Shown: one piece after another, positions 6,163-43,508 of the stretch
Position numbering within the stretch: position 1 is the first letter of the stretch
How the letters are laid out: each line of letters opens with the position of its first letter
Origin: a bacterium
Lineage (GTDB): Bacteria > UBA4055
Length of the DNA: 64,000 nucleotides
Assembly (NCBI GenBank): GCA_029559475.1
Contig: JAKQBN010000061.1
Coordinates: forward strand, 3,488 to 67,487
Direction of reading: 5' to 3'
Position numbers and translations under genes: made by a program
The notes under the pieces: model-generated
The model's database searches: none
What the model was told of the DNA's origin: nothing
The model's input: only the letters and a program-made list of their open reading frames with translations

Positions 6163-6268
6163 ATCACGTCTGATTGAATAAATATAAGGAATAAGGGAAA
6201 GTATTTTCCCTTATTTTTTATAGAATAATACTGGCGAATTAAAAAATACAAAAAAAAGTTGGATTATT

Positions 6269-7512: not shown

Positions 7513-8277
7513 TTGTTCGGAAAACTTCTTTCATTTTTAAATTTTTCAAAGAAAAATAATACTCTTGAGCTCCCCGTAAATATCGGGGAGCTTGAATTTA
7601 TACTCGGTCATAAATTCAAGAACAAAGAACTTCTTATCCGCGCTCTGACCCACAGATCATATTCTGCCCAGGATAACGGGAACGGAGAATCGAACGAAAG
7701 GCTCGAATTCCTCGGCGACTCTGTGTTAAGTTTTATCGTAGCTGAATATTTATTCATTAATTATAAAGATAAACCCGAGGGCGATTTAAGCAAGATGCGA
7801 TCTATTCTCGTATCGGGTGAAAATCTCTGCCGGGTAGCGAGAGATATCAGCCTAGGTAAATTCATTCTTGTGAGTGAATTCGAGGAAAGATCCGGCGGAA
7901 GAGATAAGGATTCTCTGCTTGAAGACTGCATGGAATCAGTGATCGGCGCGGTTTATTCCGACAGCGGAATAGAAAAAGCCCGCGAATTGATAAACAGGAT
8001 AATTCTGGATAACTGCGGATCGGTGATCGCCGAAAAAAAGAATACAAATTATAAATCAGAGCTTCTGGAGCTTGTTCAGTCGTTCGGAATAGACCCGCCG
8101 AGATACGAGATAATCAGAGAGGAAGGACCTGAGCACGATAAAACTTTTACCGTAAGCGTGATCGTGAAGGGAGAAACATTAGCCGAAGGGAAAGCGAATT
8201 CGAAAAAGAAAGCGGAACAGATCGCCAGCTCGAATGCGCTTGACAGGATCAACGGCAATCCTGACATACTGAAATAA
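7513..8277 (+). CDS. rnc: Ribonuclease III
   Basis: RNase III signature ERLEFLGDSVL and a C-terminal dsRBD. The start is TTG at 7513; no in-frame ATG lies upstream of the conserved LTHRSY region. Confidence 0.9.
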   Translation: MFGKLLSFLNFSKKNNTLELPVNIGELEFILGHKFKNKELLIRALTHRSYSAQDNGNGESNERLEFLGDSVLSFIVAEYLFINYKDKPEGDLSKMRSILVSGENLCRVARDISLGKFILVSEFEERSGGRDKDSLLEDCMESVIGAVYSDSGIEKARELINRIILDNCGSVIAEKKNTNYKSELLELVQSFGIDPPRYEIIREEGPEHDKTFTVSVIVKGETLAEGKANSKKKAEQIASSNALDRINGNPDILK

Positions 8278-29933: not shown

Positions 29934-29999
29934 ATGTCGCAGTTCCACAGGCTGATTTATATTGACAAAATGATAAATAAAGGGTCGTTACAGCTATGA
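29934..29999 (+). CDS. 21-codon upstream ORF (MSQFHRLIYIDKMINKGSLQL) that duplicates the WYL-regulator N-terminus and is translationally coupled (ATGA) to it
   Basis: A strong GAGGA RBS precedes ATG 29934, while the WYL ATG 29996 has no SD and overlaps the uORF stop (CTATGAGAG). The uORF peptide HRLIYIDKMINKGSL parallels ERIVYIDRTIKQKGSI of the downstream protein. Confidence 0.35.
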   Translation: MSQFHRLIYIDKMINKGSLQL

Positions 30000-30964
30000 G
30001 AGAAAAAAGCAAGATCGAGAGAATAGTCTATATCGACAGAACTATTAAGCAGAAAGGTTCAATAACAAAAAAGCAGATAATGGACTGGTCCGGTGCCTGC
30101 GAATCATCAGTTAAGAACGATATAGATTTTTTAAAAAATGAACTGAACGCACCCATTTATTATTCCGGCAAGAAAAAAGGCTACGCATACAAAGAAGATG
30201 TTCCATTCGAACTCTTAACATTTTTAAGCGAAAATATGGTGATCCTTTACGCTCTTTTGAAGGAATTCTTCTCGAACAGGAATTTTATGCCTGTAATAAC
30301 TGACAAGATACTAAAAGGTCTGAAGGATGAACTGCCTTCAGAATATAAAAACATTGATGGCAAGATAAGCTTCAGACTTTCTGAAGCTGAGAATCCTGAG
30401 ATGGATAAATTCGAGATCATTTTCAACTCGATACTAAACGAGACCTGCCTTGAAATTCATTATTCTGACGCTAAAGGCGTGAGTAGTGAGAGGAGTATCG
30501 AACCGCTTCACATTTACCACTATCAGGGGAAATGGTCTGTTTTTTCTTATTGCAAGAAAGCAAGGGATTACAGGGTATTCAACCTTTCGAGAATCACTAA
30601 ACTTGAAACAACTAGTAATAAATTCAGGATTGCTAATCACCCGCAGAACGTAATTGAAAATCACCTTAACGAAGCTTTCGGAGTAGCCAGAGGAAAAGAG
30701 ATCGAACAGGCCGTGATATGGTTCTATGAGCCGACAAGCCATCATGTAACCGATCAGAAGTGGCATCCTGATCAGATAACAGATCATATCACAAGAAAAG
30801 GCAAAAACATCCTGCAGTTTACGCTTCCAGTAGCTAAATACGAGGAGCTTGTCGGAAGAGTTCTGAGGTATGCGCCTGATGCTGAAGTCAGATCGCCAAT
30901 AGATATGCGTAATATGTGGCTAGACAAAATTAAGTCCCTTTCTGAAAAGTATCTGAAAAAATAA
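29996..30964 (+). CDS. WYL-domain transcriptional regulator (HTH-WYL-WCX architecture, BrxR/CapW-like)
   Basis: N-terminal HTH (IERIVYIDRTIKQKGSITKKQIMDWSGACESSVKNDIDFL). WYL-domain core (IEPLHIYHYQGKWSVFSYCKKARDYRVFNLSRI). C-terminal extension. First gene of the accessory island. Confidence 0.7.
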   Translation: MREKSKIERIVYIDRTIKQKGSITKKQIMDWSGACESSVKNDIDFLKNELNAPIYYSGKKKGYAYKEDVPFELLTFLSENMVILYALLKEFFSNRNFMPVITDKILKGLKDELPSEYKNIDGKISFRLSEAENPEMDKFEIIFNSILNETCLEIHYSDAKGVSSERSIEPLHIYHYQGKWSVFSYCKKARDYRVFNLSRITKLETTSNKFRIANHPQNVIENHLNEAFGVARGKEIEQAVIWFYEPTSHHVTDQKWHPDQITDHITRKGKNILQFTLPVAKYEELVGRVLRYAPDAEVRSPIDMRNMWLDKIKSLSEKYLKK

Positions 30965-31165
30965 AGCCTAACTTAATATTTACATAATAAGTCATTATTC
31001 TTGACCCGGTGCACCTGTATATTATTATTTATAGTATCTGTATAGAAAAAATAAAAATTAAGATATGAATGAACCATATACTTTTAATTTTCACAGATCA
31101 GGACAGTTTTTTTACCAGGTTGCATCTGTATCTTGTATTTATGTAATCCGGTATGAGGTGTAATT

Positions 31166-31399
31166 ATGGAAAAGATCAACTGTAAGAAATGCAGCGCAAC
31201 AATAGCTACTCCCGGCTATGCGAGTAGGACTTTTGCAGGAACTTATATGACCTGCTCCCAATGCGGTACTGAACTCAAAAAAGTTTCATATATTCTAAAG
31301 TTAAGTGAAGTTCAGGTCGCATTCGTATGTAAGAAATGCATCGCCATAATCAAAAAAAGGACCGGGCTCAAATGTCCGATATGCGGCACTATAAATTGA
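31166..31399 (+). CDS. Small double zinc-ribbon protein
   Basis: Four CxxC pairs: CKKC...CSQCG and CKKC...CPICG. 77 aa. RBS GAGGTG. Confidence 0.4.
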   Translation: MEKINCKKCSATIATPGYASRTFAGTYMTCSQCGTELKKVSYILKLSEVQVAFVCKKCIAIIKKRTGLKCPICGTIN

Positions 31400-31417
31400 T
31401 ATAAAGAAAATAAGGAG

Positions 31418-31651
31418 GTGAAAATGCAGAATGAAAAAGAAGCGGCTTACTGGAAAGCTGTTCAGAAATGGGCGGAAAAAGCGCAGACGCTTGTGCAGTA
31501 TCAGCAGAAAAACATGAAATGGTTCCTTTCGCCCGAGATAGTTCAGTGGTGCACGCCGAGCTACGAAAGTGAAGTGTCACAGCTTGAAAGAGAGGTCGAA
31601 AGACTCGAAAAAGAAGCTGACAGACTGGAAGTAGAAGCAGGATTAAACTAA
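31418..31651 (+). CDS. Small coiled-coil protein
   Basis: RBS AAGGAGG before the ATG. C-terminal EVSQLEREVERLEKEADRLEVEAG heptads. Confidence 0.35.
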   Translation: MKMQNEKEAAYWKAVQKWAEKAQTLVQYQQKNMKWFLSPEIVQWCTPSYESEVSQLEREVERLEKEADRLEVEAGLN

Positions 31652-31668
31652 ACAAAAAGAGGTGAAAA

Positions 31669-31884
31669 ATGAGCTTAGGGAAAGCTTTGCTTATCGGAGC
31701 TGCGGGGCTCGCGGCGGGATTATTAATAGCCGCATGGGCGGAAACAATGGACAGTGACTCATCAGATACTGATACGGATCTCGATCTTGACGATACCGGA
31801 GATTACACATATATCGGTGATTCGGATGAAACAATCGAAAGTGAGACTGATGAAACTTTGACAGACCAGATTCCGCAGGTATGA
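31669..31884 (+). CDS. Small single-pass membrane protein with a highly acidic Asp/Ser/Thr-rich tail
   Basis: RBS AGAGGTG. A TM helix LLIGAAGLAAGLLIAAWA is followed by DSDSSDTDTDLDLDDTGDYTYIGDSDETIESETDETLTD. Confidence 0.35.
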   Translation: MSLGKALLIGAAGLAAGLLIAAWAETMDSDSSDTDTDLDLDDTGDYTYIGDSDETIESETDETLTDQIPQV

Positions 31885-31908
31885 AAAAGGCGGGTAATTC
31901 CGCCTTTT
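31885..31908 (+). terminator. Rho-independent terminator
   Basis: AGGCGG-GUAAUU-CCGCCU followed by UUUU. Confidence 0.5.
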
Positions 31909-32008
31909 ATCCATGCGATTCTAGCAGACGTTATTATGATTCATGGATATACAATGGTATCATTGGAACTTAGAATCTCAAACTTAAATTAAAAGAAAGG
32001 AAATATTT

Positions 32009-32545
32009 ATGAAAAACGAAATCTATGACAAAACCAGGCTGCAAAGTGCCTTTGACAATCTTGACACTATACTCACGGAGTTAGATGTTAAAGATGAGTG
32101 TAGTAAGTTGTATAGCTTTATCGAATTTAAAGACTATGAAAAAGCCCTCGAAAGAGCCGAACTGATTATCATGAAACTACTGCCTAAATTCTGTACTAAG
32201 GAAGGCGAATTCTGCGAAGTTGATCAGTTTGTTATACTTGATTTTACTTATGCTATGTATGGCAAAGGATATTCTCTGTTCAAGCTCGGTAAATATTCTC
32301 AGGCTTATTTATACTTTAAAGATGTTTTTGACACTCTTCAGGAAAACTGCATTAGGCCTACCGGCGATCTGTTCTATTATATGGCTAAATCAAAACAGCT
32401 TTCAGATGATTTTGGTAAAGCATCGGCATTTTCATCAGGAAAGTTCTCAGGCTTCATGAAGCTTTTAGGACCCGAATTCCCTACCATTCCTGGAAATATG
32501 CGTGAACCAATTAAAAAACTAAAAAAGAAAGGTGATAAAAAATGA
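32009..32545 (+). CDS. Hypothetical protein, paralogous to the 40164 ORF
   Basis: The shared block FKDYEKALERAELIIMKL here matches AKKHYRKALTRAEIILSTL in 40164..40601. Overlaps the next gene (ATGA). Confidence 0.35.
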   Translation: MKNEIYDKTRLQSAFDNLDTILTELDVKDECSKLYSFIEFKDYEKALERAELIIMKLLPKFCTKEGEFCEVDQFVILDFTYAMYGKGYSLFKLGKYSQAYLYFKDVFDTLQENCIRPTGDLFYYMAKSKQLSDDFGKASAFSSGKFSGFMKLLGPEFPTIPGNMREPIKKLKKKGDKK

Positions 32546-33051
32546 TCATTCACGACTATTGCAAAAACTGTCCGTATTATCTAATAAATATGGCCGATAA
32601 GGGCTCACTGTCAAAAGAGGATAACGGTTCGGACACTATACTTGTTTTTCAGTCACCCGGCCGAAAAGAATGGGTAAATAAAAAGCCTTTAAGCTCAGAC
32701 TCTCCCCGTTCATGTAACGGGATCGTGTCGCGTTCCTGGGAAAGAACAGGAAGAAAGCGCGAAGAATTCGATATAACCAATGCGGTTCAATGCTATCCCG
32801 GTCAGGATCAGAAAACCAAACGCGATCTCCCGCCCGATCCCAAAGCCGTAGAACAATGCCTGTACTGCCTAGAGAAAGAAATTCTGTCTAAAAAGTATAA
32901 GATCGTTATTGCCTTCGGGAAAACTGCCGAAAAATCAGTGAACAGGATCGTTGAAAAACATAATCTTGATACTATCGTGATCAATTCTAAGCATCCTGTG
33001 GCAGGCGTAATAAAAAGAGATATTGATAATTTATGGACAAAGAAACAATAA
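32542..33051 (+). CDS. Uracil-DNA glycosylase superfamily protein (family-4-like layout) with divergent active-site motif
   Basis: N-terminal CKNCPYY, then ILVFQSPGRKE at the motif-A position (GEAPG in family 4), ITNAVQCYPG at the family-4 VKCRPP position, and a C-terminal KIVIAFGKTA. Confidence 0.45.
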   Translation: MIIHDYCKNCPYYLINMADKGSLSKEDNGSDTILVFQSPGRKEWVNKKPLSSDSPRSCNGIVSRSWERTGRKREEFDITNAVQCYPGQDQKTKRDLPPDPKAVEQCLYCLEKEILSKKYKIVIAFGKTAEKSVNRIVEKHNLDTIVINSKHPVAGVIKRDIDNLWTKKQ

Positions 33052-33785
33052 AAGGGGAATTTATGGATACTCTCTTAAGCGGTATTGATACAATAGACAG
33101 CGGACTGGAAGGATTTTCATTAGGAGAAATGGTTATCTCCGCTTCCAGGCCCGGGCATGGCAATATCTACCTTCTGTTGTCGATCGTGAGGGGAATTTAT
33201 TACGACTTCATTGATAGGTACAAATGCCTGGTTTTCTCGAACTCTGAAAAAAGCAGGCTAAAACCTTTACAGCCCGGAGATGAAGATATATTTATTTACT
33301 ATAAGTTCCAGAGCGATTCATTAACGGGTTTTTTCTCCGAACTTGAAGATCAGATTAAACTAAACGATACGAAGATCTTGATTATCGACTACAATGAAAC
33401 CAGTTTTCAGAAGAATAAGAACTTCTTCATCGGTCTTAAAAATATAGCAGTTAGAAAAAATATTCTTATCTTCATTAAATCGTATTTGACGCGGCAGTCC
33501 GCACGAAAATCGTGGTTCAATCCTCAGATAGCAGATATTGAGGGAGCACCAGTAGTTGAAAAGATCGCGGATAAGTATATAATCATGCACCGTCTTGATG
33601 TTCTCGGTATCAAGGATGCTTCCGGGCGTGATCAGACAAATATCGTCGATATCAGGCTCTGTGCAAGAGATCTGTGCCATACAGGCTCTAAGTACATTTA
33701 TTTCAACAGCGACAAGAATATTTTCGAAAATTTCACTCCGCTTCATAACAGATACGGGTACTACTATCTTTACAGTGAAAACTAA
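33033..33785 (+). CDS. DnaB-C-terminal-like (RecA-fold) protein with a degenerate Walker A
   Basis: VISASRPGHGNIYLLLSIV aligns with DnaB IIAARPSMGKTAFALN (K to N, T to I). ILIIDYNETSF matches the DnaB lvvIDYLQ block, LKNIAVRKNILIFIKSYLTRQ matches the LK-LAkEl-vPV block, and ADIEGAPVVEKIADKYIIMHR matches the SDLRESGAIEQDADvV-flyR block. No N-terminal helicase domain. Confidence 0.4.
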   Translation: MDKETIKGEFMDTLLSGIDTIDSGLEGFSLGEMVISASRPGHGNIYLLLSIVRGIYYDFIDRYKCLVFSNSEKSRLKPLQPGDEDIFIYYKFQSDSLTGFFSELEDQIKLNDTKILIIDYNETSFQKNKNFFIGLKNIAVRKNILIFIKSYLTRQSARKSWFNPQIADIEGAPVVEKIADKYIIMHRLDVLGIKDASGRDQTNIVDIRLCARDLCHTGSKYIYFNSDKNIFENFTPLHNRYGYYYLYSEN

Positions 33786-33817
33786 GACAGCAAAATAAAT
33801 AATTTAAGGGAGAATTT

Positions 33818-34165
33818 ATGACTATCCATTATTCAAAGCAAATTTACAGCGAATTAGCCACTATCAAAGCTGAATTTGACAGGATTGCTGAAAATTTATA
33901 CAAAATAAAAAAGAAGTATTATGCAATAAATTTCGACATCTCTGAGAATGAAAAGCTCGAAGAGGAGATATTCAAAAACGAGTGCGCCCTGGAAGCTCTC
34001 GAAGACACCGATGAAGAAATTTTATCAAAGATCCGTAATAAGATCGCAGGATTACAGAAAAGAATAGAAGATAATAAAAACCAAGATACGATACTGAAAA
34101 GCATTGATGATATTTTCTTGGATATTGATCAGAAAATTCAGATTCTGGATCACCAGATCGATTGA
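33818..34165 (+). CDS. Small coiled-coil protein
   Basis: RBS AAGGGAG. Heptad-rich sequence, 115 aa. Confidence 0.3.
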   Translation: MTIHYSKQIYSELATIKAEFDRIAENLYKIKKKYYAINFDISENEKLEEEIFKNECALEALEDTDEEILSKIRNKIAGLQKRIEDNKNQDTILKSIDDIFLDIDQKIQILDHQID

Positions 34166-34239
34166 GCATGACCCGTTCATTGAAATAGAATCAGACCTTT
34201 TACTGAAAACTCACTAAATTTTAATTAAACGGAGTAATT

Positions 34240-34455
34240 ATGAAAAACAACCATAAAATCAGCTTCATAAAGCCTGTACCTTATGCAGTGCCTGACTTAA
34301 GATTCTGCAATATATATTGCTTTAAAGAAATTATCATGCCTGATGACCGGATTGGCAATATCGGTGATTCATGGACATATTGTGTAATCGATTCGCAGGA
34401 AATATTTTATAATCCTTTATGTAAATCAAACGGAGACTATAGCTATGAATGCTGA
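34240..34455 (+). CDS. Hypothetical small protein
   Basis: RBS ACGGAG. 71 aa. Overlaps the next ORF. Confidence 0.25.
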   Translation: MKNNHKISFIKPVPYAVPDLRFCNIYCFKEIIMPDDRIGNIGDSWTYCVIDSQEIFYNPLCKSNGDYSYEC

Positions 34456-34861
34456 AAAAGAAATTACAGATAAGATTTTTTTTAAAAATCCCAGAACCGG
34501 AGAAACTCAGACTGTAGGCAGTAACTTAAACATCATATTTGGAGTGTTTTCCGTAATGTGCGGAATACCATTATTTATCAGAAGGCTTAACTCATGGGGA
34601 TATGTTATGCTAGCTTTACAAAGCGTGTATATGCTCCTATACCCTCAGTTCAGAGAAGGCGATTATTGCTCGATCTTTTTTTTACTTTTCGTTGAAATCA
34701 TAATCAGCTTATATTTAGGCATCAAAGGTAACAGGCTCCTTACGATCTATTACTTTGAGAACGGGTGGATTATGGAAAATCCTCATAATGAAATGGTCCG
34801 GAACACATTCAAAAAATGGAAACTTGAACCTGAAGTAATCCCTCGCAAGGGAGTCAAATGA
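34445..34861 (+). CDS. Hypothetical membrane protein
   Basis: Hydrophobic segments (IIFGVFSVMCGIPLFI, CSIFFLLFVEIIISLYLGI). Confidence 0.3.
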   Translation: MNAEKEITDKIFFKNPRTGETQTVGSNLNIIFGVFSVMCGIPLFIRRLNSWGYVMLALQSVYMLLYPQFREGDYCSIFFLLFVEIIISLYLGIKGNRLLTIYYFENGWIMENPHNEMVRNTFKKWKLEPEVIPRKGVK

Positions 34862-34885
34862 AAAACAGAAAAGAACAAATTTCTA

Positions 34886-35278
34886 TGCTACAAATGTAAT
34901 GGCAACGAAACAAGGCTACACAACCTGCGATCTGTCGGTATCGGAGGTCATACCGACAGGCAGGACTGTGTGAATTGCGATAATTACACAACTATTCTCA
35001 ACTGCGCAGAGCGCGAATTATTCGAAGAGATCTCACTCAGAATCGATAAGAACAGACTCAAATTCATCGGGATCATCAACGACGATAAAACCGAAGTAGG
35101 CTCAGTACACTTCGGAGCCGTTTTCTTATACAAACTCGATGATATTGAAAAAATAAAAAACACTACCGAAATCGAATCATACCAATGGCTGAGCATGAAA
35201 GAGATTGACGGTACAGATAATCTTGAAGAATGGAGCAGAATAGCTATGATCCTGTATAAAGATTTTTTCCTAAAATGA
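34886..35278 (+). CDS. Nudix-box-containing fragment (possible gene remnant)
   Basis: An in-frame ATG at 34886 gives MYKCNGNETRLHNLRSVGIGGHTD...ILNCAERELFEEISL. RELFEEIS matches the Nudix REUxEExGU core but the Gx5E spacing is disrupted. The ORF-track version starts at GTG 34970. Confidence 0.3.
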   Translation, partial: CYKCNGNETRLHNLRSVGIGGHTDRQDCVNCDNYTTILNCAERELFEEISLRIDKNRLKFIGIINDDKTEVGSVHFGAVFLYKLDDIEKIKNTTEIESYQWLSMKEIDGTDNLEEWSRIAMILYKDFFLK

Positions 35279-35348
35279 AAATTATTCAGCTTGACTTTAC
35301 CTCCCGGAAAATTGCATATTTACACAACCTGAATCGAGAGGTAAAAGG

Positions 35349-36278
35349 ATGGCGATTGTTAATGTTGAATATTGTGGTAATGTAATAATTCCTTCTTTGG
35401 ATATCGAAATTACCAACCAGCACATCATAAATGCAACGGAGTTTAATTTAAATATTTTTAAACGACAAGGCATTACTTTTACTGGAACTGGGCAAAATAT
35501 TTCACAAGTTGATATTGATTTTGATCCGAGTAAAAATGCCGTTCCAGATGTATGGAGGTATACAATAAAAATTGATAAAAAAAGATGTTTATCACTCGTA
35601 AAATCAAAAGTAGGTTACAGAACATGCCACGTTGAAGCATGTAAGAACTTCCTCAATAACAAAAATTTTCCTCAAGATGTAGATATTGCAAAATGCATTT
35701 CAAATGCAAAATGCAAATTTTATAAAAAATACCCAGTTATCCTTCTCCTTCTCGAATCTCCTCATAAAAATGAGTATACTAATGCTTTCATTCAAATCGC
35801 ACCAGCGCAAAAAAGTACAGGAAAATGCATAGAGAGTAATATAATAAGTCTAATAGAAGAAATAAATAAGCGCATAAATCCTCAATTACCCATAAATACA
35901 AACTACAAGCTGATAATAGCAAATCCTATACCGTTTCAAACTTCATTACACATTTTAAAAAATAAAGATTCAGGATTTGATGATAACCAAAGAAAGTTAA
36001 GAGATAGAATTTGGAAATCACTCTGGCATCAAAATAGCTTAAGATACAATTTTCTAAATCGTCTGAACAACGATTACAAGCCCGATCTTGTTATAAATGC
36101 CTGTACAGAAAATCTGCAACCTTTGGTTTCCTGTTGCATAATTTGCGGAACTTGCTATCCTTTAGTTGAAACCAAACACCCAGCTAATCATTGGAATAAA
36201 TATACAAAAAATAATAAAAGCAAATTCACTCCTGCGGAAATTCTGAAACTTAGATTTGGAATAGAAGTGATCAGATAA
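35349..36278 (+). CDS. Hypothetical Cys-rich protein
   Basis: 309 aa. RBS GAGAGGTAAAAGG. The C-terminus has CCIICGTCYP. Confidence 0.3.
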   Translation: MAIVNVEYCGNVIIPSLDIEITNQHIINATEFNLNIFKRQGITFTGTGQNISQVDIDFDPSKNAVPDVWRYTIKIDKKRCLSLVKSKVGYRTCHVEACKNFLNNKNFPQDVDIAKCISNAKCKFYKKYPVILLLLESPHKNEYTNAFIQIAPAQKSTGKCIESNIISLIEEINKRINPQLPINTNYKLIIANPIPFQTSLHILKNKDSGFDDNQRKLRDRIWKSLWHQNSLRYNFLNRLNNDYKPDLVINACTENLQPLVSCCIICGTCYPLVETKHPANHWNKYTKNNKSKFTPAEILKLRFGIEVIR

Positions 36279-36371
36279 TTCATTTCTCTATCATAACTCC
36301 TAATTTTTCTTTGACTTAAACCCTCATTCTTTGTAAATTCAGGTTATATTTTATAAAGGATCAACCCACAG

Positions 36372-38777
36372 ATGAGTTTATATGAAAAATTACAAAAAGC
36401 TACAAGCGAAGAAGATGTTAAAGACGCATATATCAAAGCTCTGGGATTAAAAAACTACTCGAAAAATCTGATTGACCTGCAAACAAAAGAAATCTGGTTT
36501 GAAGCAAAAGATACGAAAAGAAATTCAACGTACGCTATGTTCACACAATTGATGCATTATGTTCAGGCCGCTTTGAACAAAGGCGAATATATTCCGCCAT
36601 TTTTGGCAGTAATTGATACCGAAAAAGCAGCGATAATGAAAAGCTCGGATGTTATACCTTTCTTAGCAAAGAAAACAATAAAATGGGGTAAATCTGCGAG
36701 CCAGTACACACAAGAAGCGCTTGATGAAATCTCAACACATATCGGTACTCATTTTGTTTCGTTTAAAATATCTACGCATGAAGAAGAATTTATTAGCACT
36801 GTAAAAGAAGCTATAAAATCAGGCGATATAATCAGGACTAATATCACTCCTGATAACCTCAAGCAGGTATTTGATAAATGGGTATCTATGATAGGCAGGG
36901 AAATAAAAGAAGTCGATGAGAAAGATTATGCTTTGCTATTCTACGCGGATATTATGCACGATGGGGTAATGGCAACTCATAGTAATTTAACTGCTCAACT
37001 GCTACATAAAAACGACGCCCCGGTATTTAGCTTAAATGGGCACTTATACGAGCTTGGAAACAAGGAAGGTTACCGTCAGTTTTGGGCAATTTACCAAAAG
37101 CCACCTAAAGAGGAATACCGGAATTATTTACTTGAGAGGCGCGATAGTTTGATTCCTCTTGACGAGAGAGTATATAAAGGCGGCTATTACACACCTTTGA
37201 ATGTCGTAGATAAGGCTTACGATAAACTTACTGAAACATTAGGCAAGAACTGGCAGAAAGATTACATAGTTTGGGATATGTGTTGCGGGGTAGGAAATTT
37301 AGAGGTTAAGCATAGTAATCATCGAAATATTTTTATGTCAACATTGGATATGGCCGATGTTGATATTATGCAAGCTACAAAAACCTGCGTGGCAGCCCAG
37401 CGTTTTCAATATGATTATTTAAACGACGATATCACAGATAATGGACAAATTGATTATACCCTCACAAATAAAGTACCTTCAAGTTTACTGAAAGCTATAA
37501 AGGAAGAAAAAAAGATTTTAGTGTTGATTAATCCTCCCTATGCTGAATCAACAAGTTCAGATAATATTAATACAGGAGGGGCTTCAGACTCAAGTAAGAC
37601 TGGCATTGCAAAAACAAAGCTAGCACAATCAGCTATGAGTGAGTATGGTAAAGCAAGTAATGAACTCTTTACTCAGTTTGTTGTCAGAATAGCTAAAGAA
37701 ATGCCTAATGCAACTTTAGCTATGTTTAGCACTATGAAGTATGTCAATTCTCAAACATTAGAAATATTTCGTTCTGTTTGGAATGCAAAATATTTGGATG
37801 GTTTCGTTGTACATAGCAAAACCTTTGATGGGTTGAAAGGCGATTTTCCAATTGGATTCTTAATATGGAAAACGGATCAAAAATCAAAAACCAAACAACC
37901 CATAGTAGAAATATCCACTGAAGTGTTAGACAGACATGTCAATCCCATTGGTGAAAAATGCTTTTACAATATTTCTAACGATTTACTTCTAACTAATTGG
38001 ATAAAACGTCCCAAAACAAATGAAACAGAAGTTATCCCATTAAAAAATGCAATTACTCCTGCAACCGCGAATAAAGATTTAAGAGGAACTAAGTGGTCTA
38101 AAGATGCTCTTGCGTTTTGTTGGTGTAATGGTAATGATGTACAACAAGCTTCACGAACCGCATTATTCTCTTCTGGTTTCAATGGTGGTCATGGATTATT
38201 TGTTAATCCTGAAAATCTCTGGCAAGTCGCAATAATGTTTTCAGTTCGTCAATTAGTTAAACACACATGGGTTAATCATAATGACCAGTTTTTAATACCA
38301 ACAGAGCCATTATCTTATGAGTTTAAAACCGATTGTTTAATTTTCATGTTGTTTCATGGTAAAAATCTTTCAGCAAGTGCAAATGATCTAAAATGGAATG
38401 ATAAAAAGTGGTCAATAGTAAATCATTTCATCCCCTTTACTGAAGTAGAAGTAAATTCGCCAGGCCGTTTTGAATCGGACTTTATGGTTCAGTACCTGGC
38501 TGATAAAGAGCTTTCTCCTGAAGCTAAAACAGTTTTAGATGGGGGAAGAAAATTATGGCAAAGCTATTTTTCTGAGACTGATGTTAGATCTGTACGAGAT
38601 AAATACTGTCTTAACAGAACTGATGTCGGCTGGTATCAGGTTCGTAAAGCACTTGAAGAGAGAAATGCCAGCGGAGATTTCATTCCGGTTAGTTTCAAAC
38701 CCTTAGAAGAAGCATATAAGAACTTAACCGATAAGCTGAACCCGCAAGTTTATGAGCTTGGGTTCTTGCGTAAATAA
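36372..38777 (+). CDS. MmeI-like Type IIL/IIG restriction-modification protein (N-terminal PD-ExK nuclease + gamma-class N6-adenine methyltransferase + C-terminal target-recognition region)
   Basis: The N-terminus IDLQTKEIWFEAKDT...AMFTQLMHYVQAALNKGEYIPPFLAVIDTEKAAI parallels the MmeI catalytic region VDLFWPGILLIEMK...AYDQALDYF...LPRYVLVCDFQRFRL (D-x8/9-E-x-K). MTase motif I VWDMCCGVGNL. Motif IV VLINPPYAES. Confidence 0.6.
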   Translation: MSLYEKLQKATSEEDVKDAYIKALGLKNYSKNLIDLQTKEIWFEAKDTKRNSTYAMFTQLMHYVQAALNKGEYIPPFLAVIDTEKAAIMKSSDVIPFLAKKTIKWGKSASQYTQEALDEISTHIGTHFVSFKISTHEEEFISTVKEAIKSGDIIRTNITPDNLKQVFDKWVSMIGREIKEVDEKDYALLFYADIMHDGVMATHSNLTAQLLHKNDAPVFSLNGHLYELGNKEGYRQFWAIYQKPPKEEYRNYLLERRDSLIPLDERVYKGGYYTPLNVVDKAYDKLTETLGKNWQKDYIVWDMCCGVGNLEVKHSNHRNIFMSTLDMADVDIMQATKTCVAAQRFQYDYLNDDITDNGQIDYTLTNKVPSSLLKAIKEEKKILVLINPPYAESTSSDNINTGGASDSSKTGIAKTKLAQSAMSEYGKASNELFTQFVVRIAKEMPNATLAMFSTMKYVNSQTLEIFRSVWNAKYLDGFVVHSKTFDGLKGDFPIGFLIWKTDQKSKTKQPIVEISTEVLDRHVNPIGEKCFYNISNDLLLTNWIKRPKTNETEVIPLKNAITPATANKDLRGTKWSKDALAFCWCNGNDVQQASRTALFSSGFNGGHGLFVNPENLWQVAIMFSVRQLVKHTWVNHNDQFLIPTEPLSYEFKTDCLIFMLFHGKNLSASANDLKWNDKKWSIVNHFIPFTEVEVNSPGRFESDFMVQYLADKELSPEAKTVLDGGRKLWQSYFSETDVRSVRDKYCLNRTDVGWYQVRKALEERNASGDFIPVSFKPLEEAYKNLTDKLNPQVYELGFLRK

Positions 38778-38798
38778 ATATAAATCTTTCTCTGGAGG

Positions 38799-39839
38799 AT
38801 GTTAATGTCTGATAACAATATACCTGAAAACAATAATAATAGTTTGGAAAATATTGCCAAAGATTACACTGAAAAAATGCTTTCTAAATCGATAAGTAAT
38901 ATTAATTTAGACTCTTTGAAAGGTAATTCCGATAAGATAAAAGAAATTAAAGATAAAATATCATTTCATTCAATACATAGCGAACCGGTTCTTATCACAG
39001 GTGCAAGTGGTACAGGTAAAAGGCTCGTGGCTCATCTGATTCATAGCAACAGTATCTATAAAGAAAAGCCATACAAAGAAATAAACTGTCTGCTTTTTTC
39101 TAACGATAGGTTTAATTTTGACGAACTTATAGATCTTCCTAATGGTGGCACTATCTATATTAGTAATACTCATCAACTGCCTTTGCAAGCTCAATTAAAT
39201 ATAATATATCTACTTTACGACGACTTTAAGAATGAAAAGCCCTCGATACCTAAAGTACGGTTTATCTTTAGTGCAGAGAGTAATCTCATTGAATATGTAG
39301 ATAAAGGCAGCCTCCAGAAAAGCTTCTTTGATCTTATAAGTAACTTTGAAATTAAAACACCAAGTTTATACGAGATCAAAGACGATATTAAGATATTAGC
39401 TGAAAGCTTAGTTGACAAACTAAACCAAAAGTATTTAAAGCAAATTGTGTTACGTTCTGATGCCTATGCTGTTCTAAAAAATCAATTATACATGAATAAT
39501 GTACATGACTTAAAGAATGTTTTGATAAAATCTTTTATTCACGCTATGTACGAAGATAATGAAATAATCATGGCTGGGGATATAAAGAAGCATTTTGAAC
39601 CTTACATAATCAAATGCATAGACGAAATACTCGTACCGATACCAATGCCTGAAAATAAGTCTCTTTCATCATACCTTGAAGAGATTAAGATCAAAATTTA
39701 TGAATCTGCTTTGAACCATACTTCAAAGACTTTAGGCAAAAAGAGCCAGAAAAAAGCTAGTGAGTTTCTAAATGAAGATCAATCAACAATATCCAGGTTA
39801 GAAAATAAAAGAAAAACCAAATTTCTTAAATCACTATAA
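38799..39839 (+). CDS. Degenerate sigma-54-activator-like AAA+ domain protein with C-terminal HTH (catalytic motifs and GAFTGA loop absent)
   Basis: PVLITGASGTGKRLVAHLIHSNS and PYKEINC match the bEBP Walker A/NC region. Walker B is replaced (GGTIYISNT versus GTLFLDEI). No GAFTGA. The arginine-finger region is FFDL instead of FReDL. The C-terminus TLGKKSQKKASEFLNEDQSTISRL is Fis-type HTH-like. Confidence 0.5.
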   Translation: MLMSDNNIPENNNNSLENIAKDYTEKMLSKSISNINLDSLKGNSDKIKEIKDKISFHSIHSEPVLITGASGTGKRLVAHLIHSNSIYKEKPYKEINCLLFSNDRFNFDELIDLPNGGTIYISNTHQLPLQAQLNIIYLLYDDFKNEKPSIPKVRFIFSAESNLIEYVDKGSLQKSFFDLISNFEIKTPSLYEIKDDIKILAESLVDKLNQKYLKQIVLRSDAYAVLKNQLYMNNVHDLKNVLIKSFIHAMYEDNEIIMAGDIKKHFEPYIIKCIDEILVPIPMPENKSLSSYLEEIKIKIYESALNHTSKTLGKKSQKKASEFLNEDQSTISRLENKRKTKFLKSL

Positions 39840-39865
39840 TAATTTTTCACTTACATCAATTATAT

Positions 39866-39891
39866 ATTATTAATATATATATATTAATAAT
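39866..39891. repeat. Perfect 26-bp AT-only palindrome ATTATTAATATATATATATTAATAAT
   Basis: Exact reverse-complement symmetry. It sits in a 320-bp AT-rich intergenic spacer inside the island. Confidence 0.6.
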
Positions 39892-40102
39892 TGAAGAACT
39901 ATATCGTCTTCATTCCATTGCAAACTTATGAATATTTAAAGTACTGCCCATTACAGAATCAAAAAAATGTTTATCTATTACTTAGGCACAATTAAGTATT
40001 ATATCAATTCGTATATTATTTTTTAATTATTACTTACAGCATTATTTCATATTCGAATATTTATAGCTATTATACATAAATTTTCATAATCGATTTTTTT
40101 AC

Positions 40103-40131
40103 TTGACAAAGGTTTTTTTTTATTTTATAAT
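40103..40131 (+). promoter_or_regulatory. Consensus sigma70 promoter TTGACA-N17-TATAAT
   Basis: TTGACA 40103-40108 and TATAAT 40126-40131, about 30 nt upstream of the 40164 ORF. Confidence 0.5.
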
Positions 40132-40163
40132 TCGGGAGAAGTTAAAATAAAAAAAGGATCAGG

Positions 40164-40601
40164 ATGACTTGTAAAAACAACGAAATAGACACCGAAATGG
40201 TGCAAGACGCAGAACTTGAAGCACAAAAGGAAATAGAGTATGCGATAGCCGATAAAGCTGTAAGCGAACTCTTCAAATCAATAGCTAAGAAACACTACAG
40301 AAAAGCTCTTACAAGAGCAGAAATAATTTTAAGCACCCTAAATGATTCCGTAACTCCCAGAGTTTTCACGGATAAAGAAGAATTTTATGTTAGATACTCA
40401 ACTTATATCAGGGCATATTGCCACCTGATGGTTCACAATTATAAAATGGCCTTAACGGGTTATAATGATTTACTAAGATTTAATGAAAGCACTAATGCTG
40501 TAACACCAGATTTTGTAATCACTGAGCTCAAAGAAGCTCAGAATAAATCAGAAAAGATGGTCCAACCGAGACAGAAGCAACAATTAAAAAACCAGAGGTA
40601 A
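40164..40601 (+). CDS. Hypothetical protein (paralog of 32009 ORF), first gene of cassette A
   Basis: RBS AAAAGGA. Shared motif KHYRKALTRAEIIL. Confidence 0.35.
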   Translation: MTCKNNEIDTEMVQDAELEAQKEIEYAIADKAVSELFKSIAKKHYRKALTRAEIILSTLNDSVTPRVFTDKEEFYVRYSTYIRAYCHLMVHNYKMALTGYNDLLRFNESTNAVTPDFVITELKEAQNKSEKMVQPRQKQQLKNQR

Positions 40602-40604
40602 AAA

Positions 40605-40844
40605 ATGAGAAGGCGAAAGAATAATAAACAGCATCTTTATTACAATGGTGTATGTAATTCTCAAAAGAAGAATCCTTATGAATTCGAATACAATTTCACA
40701 TATAATAAAGATAGAACAGCTGTGAAAAGGTACGCATTTAATTCTGGGAACAAGGTGGTTAACGAAACGTTCCAGGAATGTATGGGGTGGTTGAATCTTG
40801 CGAAAGAGGGAATAGATGTTGTGTTTTGCTTGTTAGGAGGATAG
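40605..40844 (+). CDS. Small basic protein with Arg-rich N-terminus (cassette A partner)
   Basis: MRRRKNNKQ...YNFTYNKDRTAVKRYAFNSGNKVVNETFQECMGWLNLAKEGIDVVF. Paralogous to the 41374 ORF. Confidence 0.35.
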   Translation: MRRRKNNKQHLYYNGVCNSQKKNPYEFEYNFTYNKDRTAVKRYAFNSGNKVVNETFQECMGWLNLAKEGIDVVFCLLGG

Positions 40845-40916
40845 CTTTGACTTATAACCTGATATCTAATTCTAACTAAACTTAAAAGCCCAAAAATAAA
40901 AATATAAGGAGCAATT

Positions 40917-41381
40917 ATGAAACAGAAAGATCTTTACGGACAACCAATAACATGTGAAAACAATAGTAGTGATACGCTTATAATGCTTGATATGCCTGAT
41001 AAAAAGTCTCGTACTTCTCATAATTTAATCAGTATGCTTGAAAAATCCTGGGTGCGGGCAGCCTTAAGCATGAAGGATTTCGATCTCTTCTTTGCTTCAA
41101 ACTGCAGTCATCAGGAAGACGAAATCAATATTGGGTTGCCCATCGAAAAGTATGCTTACGATCATTATATTGAACTGCTTAAGAAGAACATCGTCAAAAA
41201 AGGGATTAAGTATAAACGGGTCATTGCACTGGGTGATTTCTCAGAGAAAGTCGCATGGGACATATCAGACGAAATTGCAGAAAAGGACTCAAAAATCGTT
41301 TTCCTACAGATACCATTAAATAATGTTTACGATGAGGATCTGGATAGAATCTGGACCGAAGAGGAGGGCAAAAATGATTAG
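40917..41381 (+). CDS. Hypothetical protein, first gene of cassette B
   Basis: RBS TAAGGAG. 154 aa, acidic C-terminus. Overlaps the next ORF (ATGATTAG). Confidence 0.3.
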   Translation: MKQKDLYGQPITCENNSSDTLIMLDMPDKKSRTSHNLISMLEKSWVRAALSMKDFDLFFASNCSHQEDEINIGLPIEKYAYDHYIELLKKNIVKKGIKYKRVIALGDFSEKVAWDISDEIAEKDSKIVFLQIPLNNVYDEDLDRIWTEEEGKND

Positions 41382-41571
41382 AAGAATTAAAAGAATAAGG
41401 AGATCGAAAAGATTCAAGTATAATTTTGAACTAGGAACGAACCCTATGGTAAAAAGAACATACCGTTATTCTTCAGGTAACGATACGGTCGATGATATCT
41501 TCCACGAGAGTGTAGCTTGTTTGAACACTGTCAAAGAAGTCATCGATATTTTTTTTGATTTCATTACGTAA
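41374..41571 (+). CDS. Small basic protein with Arg-rich N-terminus (cassette B partner)
   Basis: MIRRIKRIRRSKRFKYNFELGTNPMVKRTYRYSSGNDTVDDIFHESVACLNTVKEVIDIFF aligns with the 40605 ORF along its length. Confidence 0.35.
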   Translation: MIRRIKRIRRSKRFKYNFELGTNPMVKRTYRYSSGNDTVDDIFHESVACLNTVKEVIDIFFDFIT

Positions 41572-41619
41572 TCACAGTAATCTAACTACAAGGCGAACAT
41601 GCCTGTAAATATTAACATT

Positions 41620-43023: not shown

Positions 43024-43054
43024 CTCTATATTAAAAACGAACTTAAATTAAAAA

Positions 43055-43138
43055 TGCCCGGGACTGGGCTCGAACCAGCACAGCATTGCTGCCACCAGAC
43101 CCTGAACCTGGCGTGTCTGCCAATTCCACCACCCGGGC
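43055..43138 (-). tRNA. tRNA-Leu (anticodon CAG), class II with long variable arm; CCA not encoded
   Basis: GCCCGGGTGGTGGAATTGGCAGACACGCCAGGTTCAGGGTCTGGTGGCAGCAATGCTGTGCTGGTTCGAGCCCAGTCCCGGGCA. 7-bp acceptor, anticodon loop UUCAGGG, GTTCGAG T-loop. Close to E. coli tRNA-Leu(CAG). Confidence 0.85.
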
Positions 43139-43508
43139 AATTCATACAGGCGGTAAATATATTATATTTTATTGCCGCGGTCAAGTAATTTATACTGAAA
43201 ATGATATGGGACAGGGCATAACTTAATTCCGTATCTCATCCTGCAACCATTAATCTCAATCACTTCTTTATTAAGTGTGTCGTACCGGCGAAAGAGAAGA
43301 TGTAACGGATATCGATCCGTCTTGAATTATGACCTGTCCTATCACCTTAATAGGTAATTATGATCTGATACAATTCGTATGTAGGCCGCTCCGTTTACAC
43401 CTCTTTACCAGCCGGTATCTGACAGTTTTATAGAAGCGATTGAACGGATGGATCAGGAGTGGTCTGAATATGAAGTTGCATCAGATCGATGGGCAGTTGA
43501 AAGTGCTA

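Follow-up and report, generated by a model that had tools for sequence, protein, structure and literature searches.

The locus analysed here lies in a 64,000-nt stretch of DNA from a bacterium of the GTDB lineage UBA4055 (GCA_029559475.1, contig JAKQBN010000061.1, positions 3,488-67,487 of the forward strand), which is referred to as the window throughout. Three co-directional open reading frames (ORFs), at 32009-32545 (178 aa), 32542-33051 (169 aa) and 33033-33785 (250 aa), encode a weakly TPR-like protein, a protein of the uracil-DNA glycosylase (UDG) superfamily and a DnaB C-terminal domain with a dead P-loop. The latter two are termed the UDG-like protein and the pseudo-DnaB, or pseudo-helicase. 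An earlier note, made from the sequence of the window, had pointed to the glycosylase and the pseudo-helicase as a possible module. Comparison with homologous loci indicates instead that the UDG-like gene forms a cassette with the TPR-like gene, and that the conserved partner of the pseudo-DnaB is a WYL regulator encoded upstream. Homologues were collected from the protein database and from metagenome and GTDB scans, and the contigs that encode them (L001-L034) were compared by tblastn and clustering. The features of the locus are as follows.

29996-30964, +: WYL-WCX regulator, BrxR/CapW-like (Pfam, PADLOC), heading the island
31001-31028, +: promoter-like site TTGACC-16-TATTAT just downstream of the WYL gene, 10/12 consensus matches, putative promoter function
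31166-31884, +: three small ORFs (77-aa double zinc ribbon; 77-aa coiled-coil; 71-aa transmembrane segment with acidic tail)
31885-31910, +: terminator-like hairpin, stem AAAGGCGGG/CCGCCUUU, -15.3 kcal/mol, z -3.2
32009-32545, +: small helical, weakly TPR-like protein, first gene of the cassette
32542-33051, +: Fe-S UDG-superfamily protein (Pfam UDG, AlphaFold 2 (AF2), Foldseek)
33063-33785, +: catalytically dead DnaB C-terminal (RecA-fold) protein, 240 aa (Pfam DnaB_C, PDB 4nmn)
33818-34165, +: 115-aa coiled-coil protein, 32 nt downstream of the pseudo-helicase gene
34240-34861, +: 71-aa ORF overlapping a 138-aa predicted membrane protein (called from hydrophobic stretches by eye)
35349-36278, +: 309-aa protein (tblastn, alignment, hhalign)
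40164-40601, +: TPR-like paralogue (phmmer), in the second copy of the cassette
40917-41381, +: degenerate UDG-like paralogue (tblastn, hhalign, motif table)

The TPR-like and UDG-like genes are joined by a true ATGA overlap that is preceded by a AAAGGTGA Shine-Dalgarno sequence. ATGA overlaps had been described at both joins, which is correct for this first junction only. In all homologues, the pseudo-DnaB starts at the equivalent of its second Met (MD..., 33063). This codon has its own AAAGGGGA Shine-Dalgarno sequence and is separated by an 11-nt gap from the TAA stop codon of the UDG-like gene (33049-33051); the alternative ATG at 33033 would give a 19-nt overlap with that gene. Because the second junction is not ATGA, the proposed co-translation of the second and third genes through such a junction is incorrect. 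Public gene calls place the start of the UDG-like gene at Met17 (P0001, 153 aa). The 169-aa reading from 32542 is considered correct since the N-terminal CxxC(P/S)Y motif is conserved in 26 of 27 homologues. The transcription unit probably comprises more than three genes, since short gaps continue downstream of the pseudo-DnaB.

These genes are part of an island (about 29996-41600) located between ndk and the oxaloacetate decarboxylase beta-subunit gene oadB. The GC content of the island is 0.32-0.39 (from about 30.0 to 41.6 kb), compared with 0.42-0.46 in the flanks. DNA repeats flanking the cassette or the island were looked for, and none was found.

The UDG-like protein and its cassette

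The middle protein matches Pfam PF03167 with an E-value of 1.3e-11 (45.2 bits, cutoff 24.3), and its FQSPG, FDITNAVQCY, N-terminal CxxC and AFGKTA motifs align to family-4 positions, which agrees with its first description as a family-4-like UDG. Structure prediction and fold search lead to the same fold. The AF2 model (pLDDT 85.5, pTM 0.82) is nearest to UdgX in Foldseek (8iil, E 3.7e-10, TM 0.66), with a probability of 1.00 to UdgX, family-4, SMUG1 and TDG; the family-4 enzymes of S. tokodaii, T. maritima and T. thermophilus follow with E-values of 3e-8 to 1e-7 and a TM of about 0.65. A sequence profile search of the PDB returned the same order, with UdgX before family-4. The NCBIfam scores are far below the cutoffs (35.8 versus 125.3 for TIGR00758, 33 versus 250 for NF040953 and 29.2 versus 190 for TIGR03914), and the protein is therefore not a regular family-4 enzyme or UdgX. 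Neither the UDG-like family nor the dead DnaB_C family was found in scans of IMG/VR, and PADLOC and PHROGs gave no match for either protein of the window.

Motif conservation was assessed in 27 active-type UDG-like sequences from the protein database and the metagenome scan. Motif A takes the form (V/I)(F/L)Q(S/A)PGxxEW. Its Gln, which the earlier note had recognised at the catalytic Glu position, is invariant in all 27 homologues and is not a peculiarity of the window copy. All four Fe-S cysteines (C8, C11, C84 and C106) are kept at the positions of the family-4 cysteines, and a [4Fe-4S] cluster is predicted. An Arg-Asp pair is invariant, and the C-terminal His-Pro is kept throughout (27/27). 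The base-reading position is occupied by Asn in 25 of the 27 sequences and by Glu in two (YDITEAVQCF and YDIAEAVCCF). In a hidden Markov model (HMM) alignment with the T. thermophilus enzyme Tth UDGa (1ui0), Q37 corresponds to E41, S38 to G42, E43 to E47, L50 to F54, N80 to N80, C84 to C84 and R94 to R90, and H151 of the His-Pro is assigned to motif B by motif and position, not by superposition. In the pocket, Leu or Ile takes the Phe54 position, conservation is lacking at the Asn89 position, and the Arg is followed by an invariant Asp.

In Tth UDGa, the E41Q substitution alone lowers kcat/Km on uracil 888-fold, the largest single contribution, of over three orders of magnitude, comes from the motif-B His, and the Asn reads the N3/O4 edge of uracil (Xia et al., PMC5387724). 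In the UDG-like protein, the leaving-group His, the Asn and the Glu equivalent to E47 are kept, the motif A doublet is changed to Gln-Ser, the aromatic residue is replaced by Leu/Ile and the Asp of the Arg-Asp pair is gained; this combination suggests a retargeted, active enzyme rather than a loss of function. As a candidate DNA glycosylase, the protein would be specific for a base other than uracil or for a modified pyrimidine. The uracil-reading Asn would favour a uracil- or thymine-type modified base as the substrate, and the two members that carry Glu suggest that specificity varies within the FQSPG clade.

A non-catalytic protein that binds modified bases or DNA as a sensor or shield, in effect a pseudo-glycosylase, appears quite unlikely here. 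The structure of UdgX illustrates that a UDG fold can evolve tight, non-turnover DNA binding. Such a role is also compatible with the Gln in place of the family-4 Glu, given the cost of E41Q in Tth UDGa, and with the exchange of the stacking Phe. It is opposed by the conservation of N80, E47 and the motif-B His, on which the binding-only role considered in the earlier note is not favoured, and by the invariant Arg-Asp, which lies beside the family-4 water-positioning site and could act as a replacement carboxylate. Moreover, real loss can be seen in the second UDG-like ORF of the island, which the first copy does not resemble.

This second ORF (40917-41381) shares 28% identity with the UDG-like protein (tblastn 5e-13, hhalign 95.9%). 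Its reading frame is intact, and it is without the CxxC, the Asn, the Arg-Asp, the fourth Cys and the His-Pro; FQSPG is replaced by LDMPD. It would thus represent decay within the family. The gene that precedes it, ORF 40164-40601, is 27-28% identical to the TPR-like protein (phmmer 5.5e-5). The paralogy in the earlier label 'TPR-like paralog' therefore stands, and the TPR assignment is weak, as it derives from one TPR_1 match (E 9.5e-4, 19.3 bits) under the Pfam cutoff of 27.8. Among 5.8 billion proteins, the TPR-like protein has no homologue except itself and ORF 40164-40601. In L009, its conserved C-terminus is encoded ahead of the UDG-like gene. Because of this conservation and of the second pair in the island, the TPR-like and UDG-like genes are regarded as a cassette of their own, present twice in the window, which the earlier note had not recognised. 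TPR-CHAT or weakly TPR-like neighbours also occur at other UDG-like loci, and these are unrelated in sequence to the TPR-like protein of the window. Two small ORFs that are paralogues of each other (40605-40844 and 41323-41571; 35% identity, E 8e-11) accompany the second pair (40164-41571), one behind each gene.

The surroundings of the UDG-like genes vary. They include TPR-CHAT together with a sigma factor, the repressor end of a Mu-like prophage, a serine recombinase, an AAA_21 ATPase, SNF2 with a PLD-like protein, and GmrSD with a double AAA protein and another WYL regulator. At five loci (that of P0010 on the 11.6 kb contig ERZ1426830, L007, L008, L024 and L028), the UDG-like homologue lies directly downstream of a 1001-aa TPR-repeat protein, whose gene in turn lies behind a sigma-70 family gene and a 193-aa ORF; the truncated homologue in L028 carries a CHAT domain. 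This layout recalls the TPR-CHAT/RpoE accessory genes of type III-E CRISPR systems. The convergent neighbours of some UDG-like genes (247 aa in L004, L005 and L013-15; 207-227 aa in L007 and L008) were considered as cryptic DnaB_C-like proteins and rejected, as they are unrelated.

The 309-aa protein of the island belongs to a family with the motifs LESP(H/R)xxE(Y/F), NP(I/V)x(F/Y)QxSL and a C-terminal HP. Its members are convergent to and overlap the UDG-like gene in L007 (2226-2759, minus strand) and L008 (920-1603, minus strand), and one is located downstream of the pseudo-helicase in L003 (4359-4871). Alignment with the UDG-like family by hhalign gave a probability of 51% (E 1.6e-4) with the motifs aligned, and a PDB match was not obtained. 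The family may be a very divergent form of the UDG-like fold.

The pseudo-DnaB and the WYL regulator

The third protein matches Pfam PF03796 (DnaB_C) with 36.2 bits (cutoff 27), and its best solved relative is Aquifex DnaB (4nmn, E 4.5e-10). Homology extends over the complete RecA domain, starting with the TGhxxLD motif and reaching the end, and begins at about residue 176 of DnaB. The 240-aa protein has neither the DnaB N-terminal domain nor the linker helix. In Walker A, ARPGMGKT (pattern xRPxMGKT) is replaced by SRPGHGNI, with the family form SRPGHGN(I/F/L), and both the Lys and the Thr are lost. The earlier description as a DnaB_C-type protein with a dead P-loop and no helicase N-terminal domain is thus accurate. 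The Walker B position reads ILIIDYNE, and the sensor Gln is lost. The SDLRESG loop becomes IADIEG(A/S)P in the dead family (IADIEGAP in the window) and AK(N/Q)RNG becomes CARDLC in the window protein, with an invariant Asp; from structures of B. stearothermophilus DnaB, we take these two elements to be the single-stranded DNA (ssDNA)-binding loop and the arginine finger, respectively. By these motif changes, the pseudo-DnaB is predicted to be able neither to hydrolyse ATP nor to translocate on ssDNA.

An HMM search of 1.84 billion representatives returned three clusters below 1e-30, a fragment and one further cluster at 1.5e-19, and the GTDB genome scan added only one dead-DnaB_C locus. The triple motif loss occurs only in P0016-P0022. 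Beyond these, the closest relatives have 270-350 aa; they are short DnaB-like proteins with intact motifs and match the phage helicase families phrog_19 and phrog_243. These phage-type relatives, the association of the island with tRNA-Leu in related genomes and the loss of all catalytic motifs might recall a decaying, functionless relic of a mobile-element replication module. Such a relic is highly improbable, since the ORF is intact in nine loci (the window, L001, L002, L003, L009, L010, L032, L033 and L034) down to 20-29% identity. The family also conserves specific motifs of its own, namely SRPGHGN, IADIEG, GIKDxxGRDQ and a C-terminal RYGYYYL tail. In unsaturated pairs, dN/dS is 0.098-0.14; it is 0.34 for L002/L003. 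The low ratios, and the fact that the nearest relatives share the dead motifs, argue for purifying selection and against the pseudogene that the earlier note had considered. The pseudo-DnaB is viewed as a non-catalytic RecA-fold scaffold derived from a phage-type helicase, and its most economical mode of action would be to interfere stoichiometrically with a DnaB-family helicase or to mimic one.

The regulator upstream, which the earlier note did not mention, is the conserved partner of the pseudo-helicase. The window protein matches Pfam WYL (1.3e-14) and WCX (1.3e-7) as well as PADLOC WYL over residues 6-303 (3.5e-31); it has no separate helix-turn-helix (HTH) match in Pfam, and its orthologue in L034 shows a weak HTH_11 match. 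Orthologues with 50-71% identity are located upstream of the DnaB_C-like gene in L001, L002, L003 and L010, and a distant one (1.8e-25) in L034. Including the window, a WYL-WCX gene precedes the pseudo-helicase in all six loci with enough flank. In L001 and L010, it lies directly upstream and leaves no room for another gene. The L034 pseudo-helicase shares no more than 20-29% identity with the other copies (20% with that of the window), and yet the accompanying WYL protein belongs to the same subfamily (1e-25 to 1e-31, compared with 7e-6 to the WYL protein of L014).

Non-coding sequence also connects the two genes. In L002, a 15-nt near-palindrome, GGTAAATATATTACC, occurs exactly twice, at 6171-6185 after the WYL gene and at 7938-7952 before the DnaB_C-like gene, and is a candidate operator. 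The first ~55 nt after the WYL stop codon of the window, including the promoter-like site, are homologous to the intergenic region directly before the DnaB_C-like gene in L001 and L010. The position upstream in 6/6 loci, the shared subfamily in L034, the repeated palindrome and the homologous promoter region together indicate that the regulator and the pseudo-helicase form a conserved core. Around and between them, the genes change: toxin-antitoxin pairs, small zinc-ribbon proteins, glycosylases and a membrane protein were observed. A sequence related to the palindrome, GGGCAATTATAATACCC, follows the WYL gene in L003.

The array of L034 (1-9055) comprises the WYL gene, an OGG-type glycosylase (PF21790), a 74-aa ORF, SIR2, two unknowns, the dead DnaB_C gene, two further unknowns and GmrSD/HEC-05. 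Its pseudo-helicase block has on either side one of two ORFs (160 and 191 aa) that are paralogues of each other (E 6e-42). Two unrelated glycosylases, the FQSPG UDG of the window and L009 and the OGG-type enzyme of L034, are thus found in WYL-to-pseudo-DnaB arrays, in two lineages only.

Conserved co-occurrence of the UDG-like protein with the pseudo-DnaB is largely absent. L032 and L033 are too short upstream, which leaves seven dead-DnaB_C loci informative for adjacency, and a UDG-like gene directly precedes the pseudo-helicase in only two of them (the window and L009). Conversely, 25 of the 27 UDG-like loci are without a DnaB_C-like gene, and the 247-aa and 207-227-aa proteins that flank the UDG-like gene at some of them are unrelated to DnaB_C. 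With adjacency in 2/7 and 2/27 loci, the glycosylase and the pseudo-helicase are not an obligate pair. A dedicated two-component module, in which a base-flipping sensor or glycosylase hands over to the dead DnaB or is regulated by it, is therefore unlikely. In its favour, the adjacency is kept in the window and L009 although both proteins have diverged by about 50% (50% identity for the UDG-like and 51% for the DnaB_C-like protein), the genes of the window are separated by 11 nt with no terminator between them, and a non-homologous glycosylase occupies the same array in L034. Against this, four genes separate the glycosylase from the pseudo-helicase in L034, a -22 kcal/mol hairpin lies between the two genes in L009, and the five informative loci without a UDG-like gene include L001 and L010, whose pseudo-helicases are 89-91% identical to that of L009 and continue to evolve under purifying selection.

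The WYL protein also admits a reading as a stress or repair regulator similar to PafBC, DriD and SiwR; the UDG-like protein would then repair endogenous lesions and the pseudo-DnaB would serve as a checkpoint or restart factor of the host replisome. WYL regulators sense ssDNA and control damage regulons (PMC10853764, PMC10693628), the uracil-reading Asn and catalytic His of the UDG-like protein are kept, and a LexA/CI-like HTH-S24 repressor adjoins its homologues in L011 and L012. This repressor belongs to a Mu-like prophage, however, and homologues are located in prophages and integrative elements and beside GmrSD, CHAT and AAA_21, not beside repair genes. The patchy, rare distribution, the low-GC setting, the degenerate second copy in the same island and scores far below the NCBIfam family-4 and UdgX cutoffs likewise make a housekeeping repair function improbable.

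Further genes of the island

Three small ORFs lie behind the WYL gene, and homologues of the last two also follow this gene in L002 and L003 (79-82% and 53-59% identity). The first, the 77-aa double zinc ribbon (31166-31399), consists of two CxxC...CxxC halves, which are encoded by a 23-nt direct repeat inside the gene (31181-31203 and 31328-31350). In L003, another, distinct small zinc-ribbon ORF lies ahead of the dead DnaB_C gene. The hairpin at 31885-31910 separates this small-ORF unit from the TPR-like/UDG-like/DnaB_C unit, and the same hairpin follows the homologous small ORF in L003. On the other side of the pseudo-helicase, homologues of the 115-aa coiled-coil protein are found after the DnaB_C-like gene in L009 and after the WYL gene in L002 and L003. 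The 71-aa ORF and the membrane protein (34240-34861) are likely the downstream end of the transcription unit that contains the pseudo-helicase, and their homologues lie directly 3' of the DnaB_C-like gene in L003 and L010 (48-49% identity).

Farther downstream, a 102-aa ORF with a GTG start (34970-35278) matches the NUDIX profile over positions 43-125 only, out of 134, has a weak match to PADLOC NsnC, and is probably a truncated NUDIX gene. The region 36372-39839 encodes an 801-aa protein with an NPPY (LINPPYAES) methyltransferase motif and marginal Pfam and PADLOC methyltransferase matches, followed by a 346-aa AAA+ protein of the sigma-54-interaction type; it is unusual to see these two paired in one island. 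In relatives, a tRNA-Leu(CAG) lies between ndk and the WYL island (L001 6140-6224, L003 808-892 and L010 118-202). The tRNA-Leu(CAG) of the window (43054-43139, minus strand) is located past oadB, at the opposite side of the island; no integrase was observed. Since the tRNA is on different sides in the window and in the relatives, the position of the island relative to tRNA-Leu has changed.

Interpretation and comparison with known systems

We favour, with a probability of about 0.5, a reading in which two separable units share one transcript within a WYL-headed, defence-like island: a Brig-like glycosylase cassette and a pseudo-DnaB linked to the regulator. The genes of the island and the neighbours of the homologues make a mobile-element or defence setting plausible, as the earlier note had supposed. 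The UDG-like protein would be an active, Brig-like glycosylase that flips a non-canonical pyrimidine out of invading DNA and excises it; this base would most likely be a 5-substituted uracil or of the thymine type, and the resulting abasic sites would block replication of that DNA. The pseudo-DnaB would act stoichiometrically, either as a dominant-negative (poison) subunit of a phage or host DnaB-family helicase or as a decoy for the loader of such a helicase, and would be expressed when the WYL regulator senses ssDNA.

Several points weigh against this reading. The Brig proteins and the UDG-like clade are likened by fold and setting, not by sequence, and a binding-only role of the UDG-like protein gains some weight because the exchange of Glu for Gln is by itself strongly deleterious for uracil excision in Tth UDGa. 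A simple poison-subunit model is weakened because the linker helix that ties neighbouring DnaB subunits together is absent, and the AF2 model of the pseudo-DnaB, built from a four-sequence alignment, has a pLDDT of only 46. The dead DnaB_C family is tiny (about 7 clusters among 1.84 billion representatives), and most loci come from one lineage with shared synteny, so that part of the WYL association is due to vertical inheritance; L034 alone is an independent case. Finally, between the window and L009 the UDG-like gene has diverged as far as the DnaB_C-like gene, so that their adjacency is old and some functional cooperation may exist.

A bolder proposal is that the WYL regulator and the dead DnaB are the two-gene core of an undescribed anti-phage system, with glycosylases of different superfamilies as interchangeable front ends. 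The dead DnaB would act as a poison of, or decoy for, DnaB-family helicases or their loaders. Abasic sites would stall phage forks, the exposed ssDNA would signal to the WYL regulator, and this signal would feed forward onto the replication block. The unrelated glycosylases in the arrays of the window, L009 and L034 fit such a scheme, which we hold to be doubtful.

Under the preferred reading of two separable units, an active FQSPG clade would constitute a new UDG family (Fe-S, a Gln-Ser motif A and an invariant Arg-Asp) and a fourth antiviral lineage with the UDG fold, and its Asn-to-Glu switch, between uracil- and cytosine-type bases, could be useful for the detection or cutting of modified bases. 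The WYL and dead-DnaB pair, if the reading is true, would be a rare case of a domesticated, inert replication protein selected beside an ssDNA-sensing regulator, and would lead to the idea of dominant-negative or decoy helicase subunits that block phage replication. Generality is limited because both families are very rare in current databases.

Compared with family-4 UDGs (Tth 1UI0 and S. tokodaii 4ZBX), the UDG-like protein has the same fold, the four Cys, the ITN-x-V-x-C strand with the Asn, the Glu (E47), the Arg (R90) and the motif-B His-Pro. It differs in motif A, which is FQSPG instead of GE(A/G)PG, in the Leu/Ile at the place of the stacking Phe54, in a length that is shorter by 20-35 residues, and in the location of its gene in a defence-like island instead of a housekeeping context. 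UdgX of M. smegmatis, which cross-links covalently to uracil-DNA, is the best structural match; it too is an Fe-S protein that derives from family 4, and its motif A is changed (GEQPG). The UDG-like protein has neither the KRRIH R-loop nor the cross-linking His109 of UdgX, and its invariant Arg-Asp aligns at this site without a His.

The antiviral glycosylases Brig1, Brig2 and Brig3 are precedents for such a role of the UDG fold. Brig1 acts on alpha-glucosyl-hydroxymethylcytosine, has the S. tokodaii family-4 UDG as its best structural match (PMC11078745) and carries a Glu (E147) at the base-reading position, which reads the cytosine derivative. Brig2 acts on 5-substituted deoxyuridines (10.1101/2025.10.29.685425), and Brig3 acts on 5-hydroxymethylcytosine and is encoded with its partner BapA in a two-gene operon (PMC13160076). 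According to these descriptions, the Brigs and the UDG-like clade have in common the UDG fold, an AT-rich defence-island or mobile-element setting and an altered base pocket; a small partner gene in the operon is also common to some Brigs (BapA for Brig3) and the UDG-like protein (the TPR-like gene). Neither the PDB sequence matches (with E-values up to 1) nor the listed top 50 PDB fold matches include a Brig entry.

With the replicative helicase DnaB, the pseudo-DnaB shares the whole RecA domain, and the two differ in the N-terminal domain, the linker, the catalytic motifs and the RYGYYYL tail. A stand-alone DnaB_C lineage beside type XI-like retron reverse transcriptases (10.64898/2026.05.14.725207) also recurs in defence-type neighbourhoods and is reported without WYL partners, unlike the pseudo-DnaB; a link to these retrons was rejected, as no reverse transcriptase is present in the island. 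The regulator itself is similar to BrxR and CapW, which sense ssDNA (PMC11662680, PMC9122601): as in these proteins, WYL is combined with WCX, and its gene is the first of a variable, defence-like island and is followed by a promoter-like region (PMC9122601, PMC9122588, PMC11662680). The cargo of BrxR and CapW is BREX, CBASS or another named system, whereas the conserved cargo here is a dead DnaB domain. Neither the UDG-like clade nor the WYL and dead-DnaB pair matches a described system; the former resembles the antiviral UDG-fold glycosylases, and the latter resembles the cargo of WYL-regulated islands.

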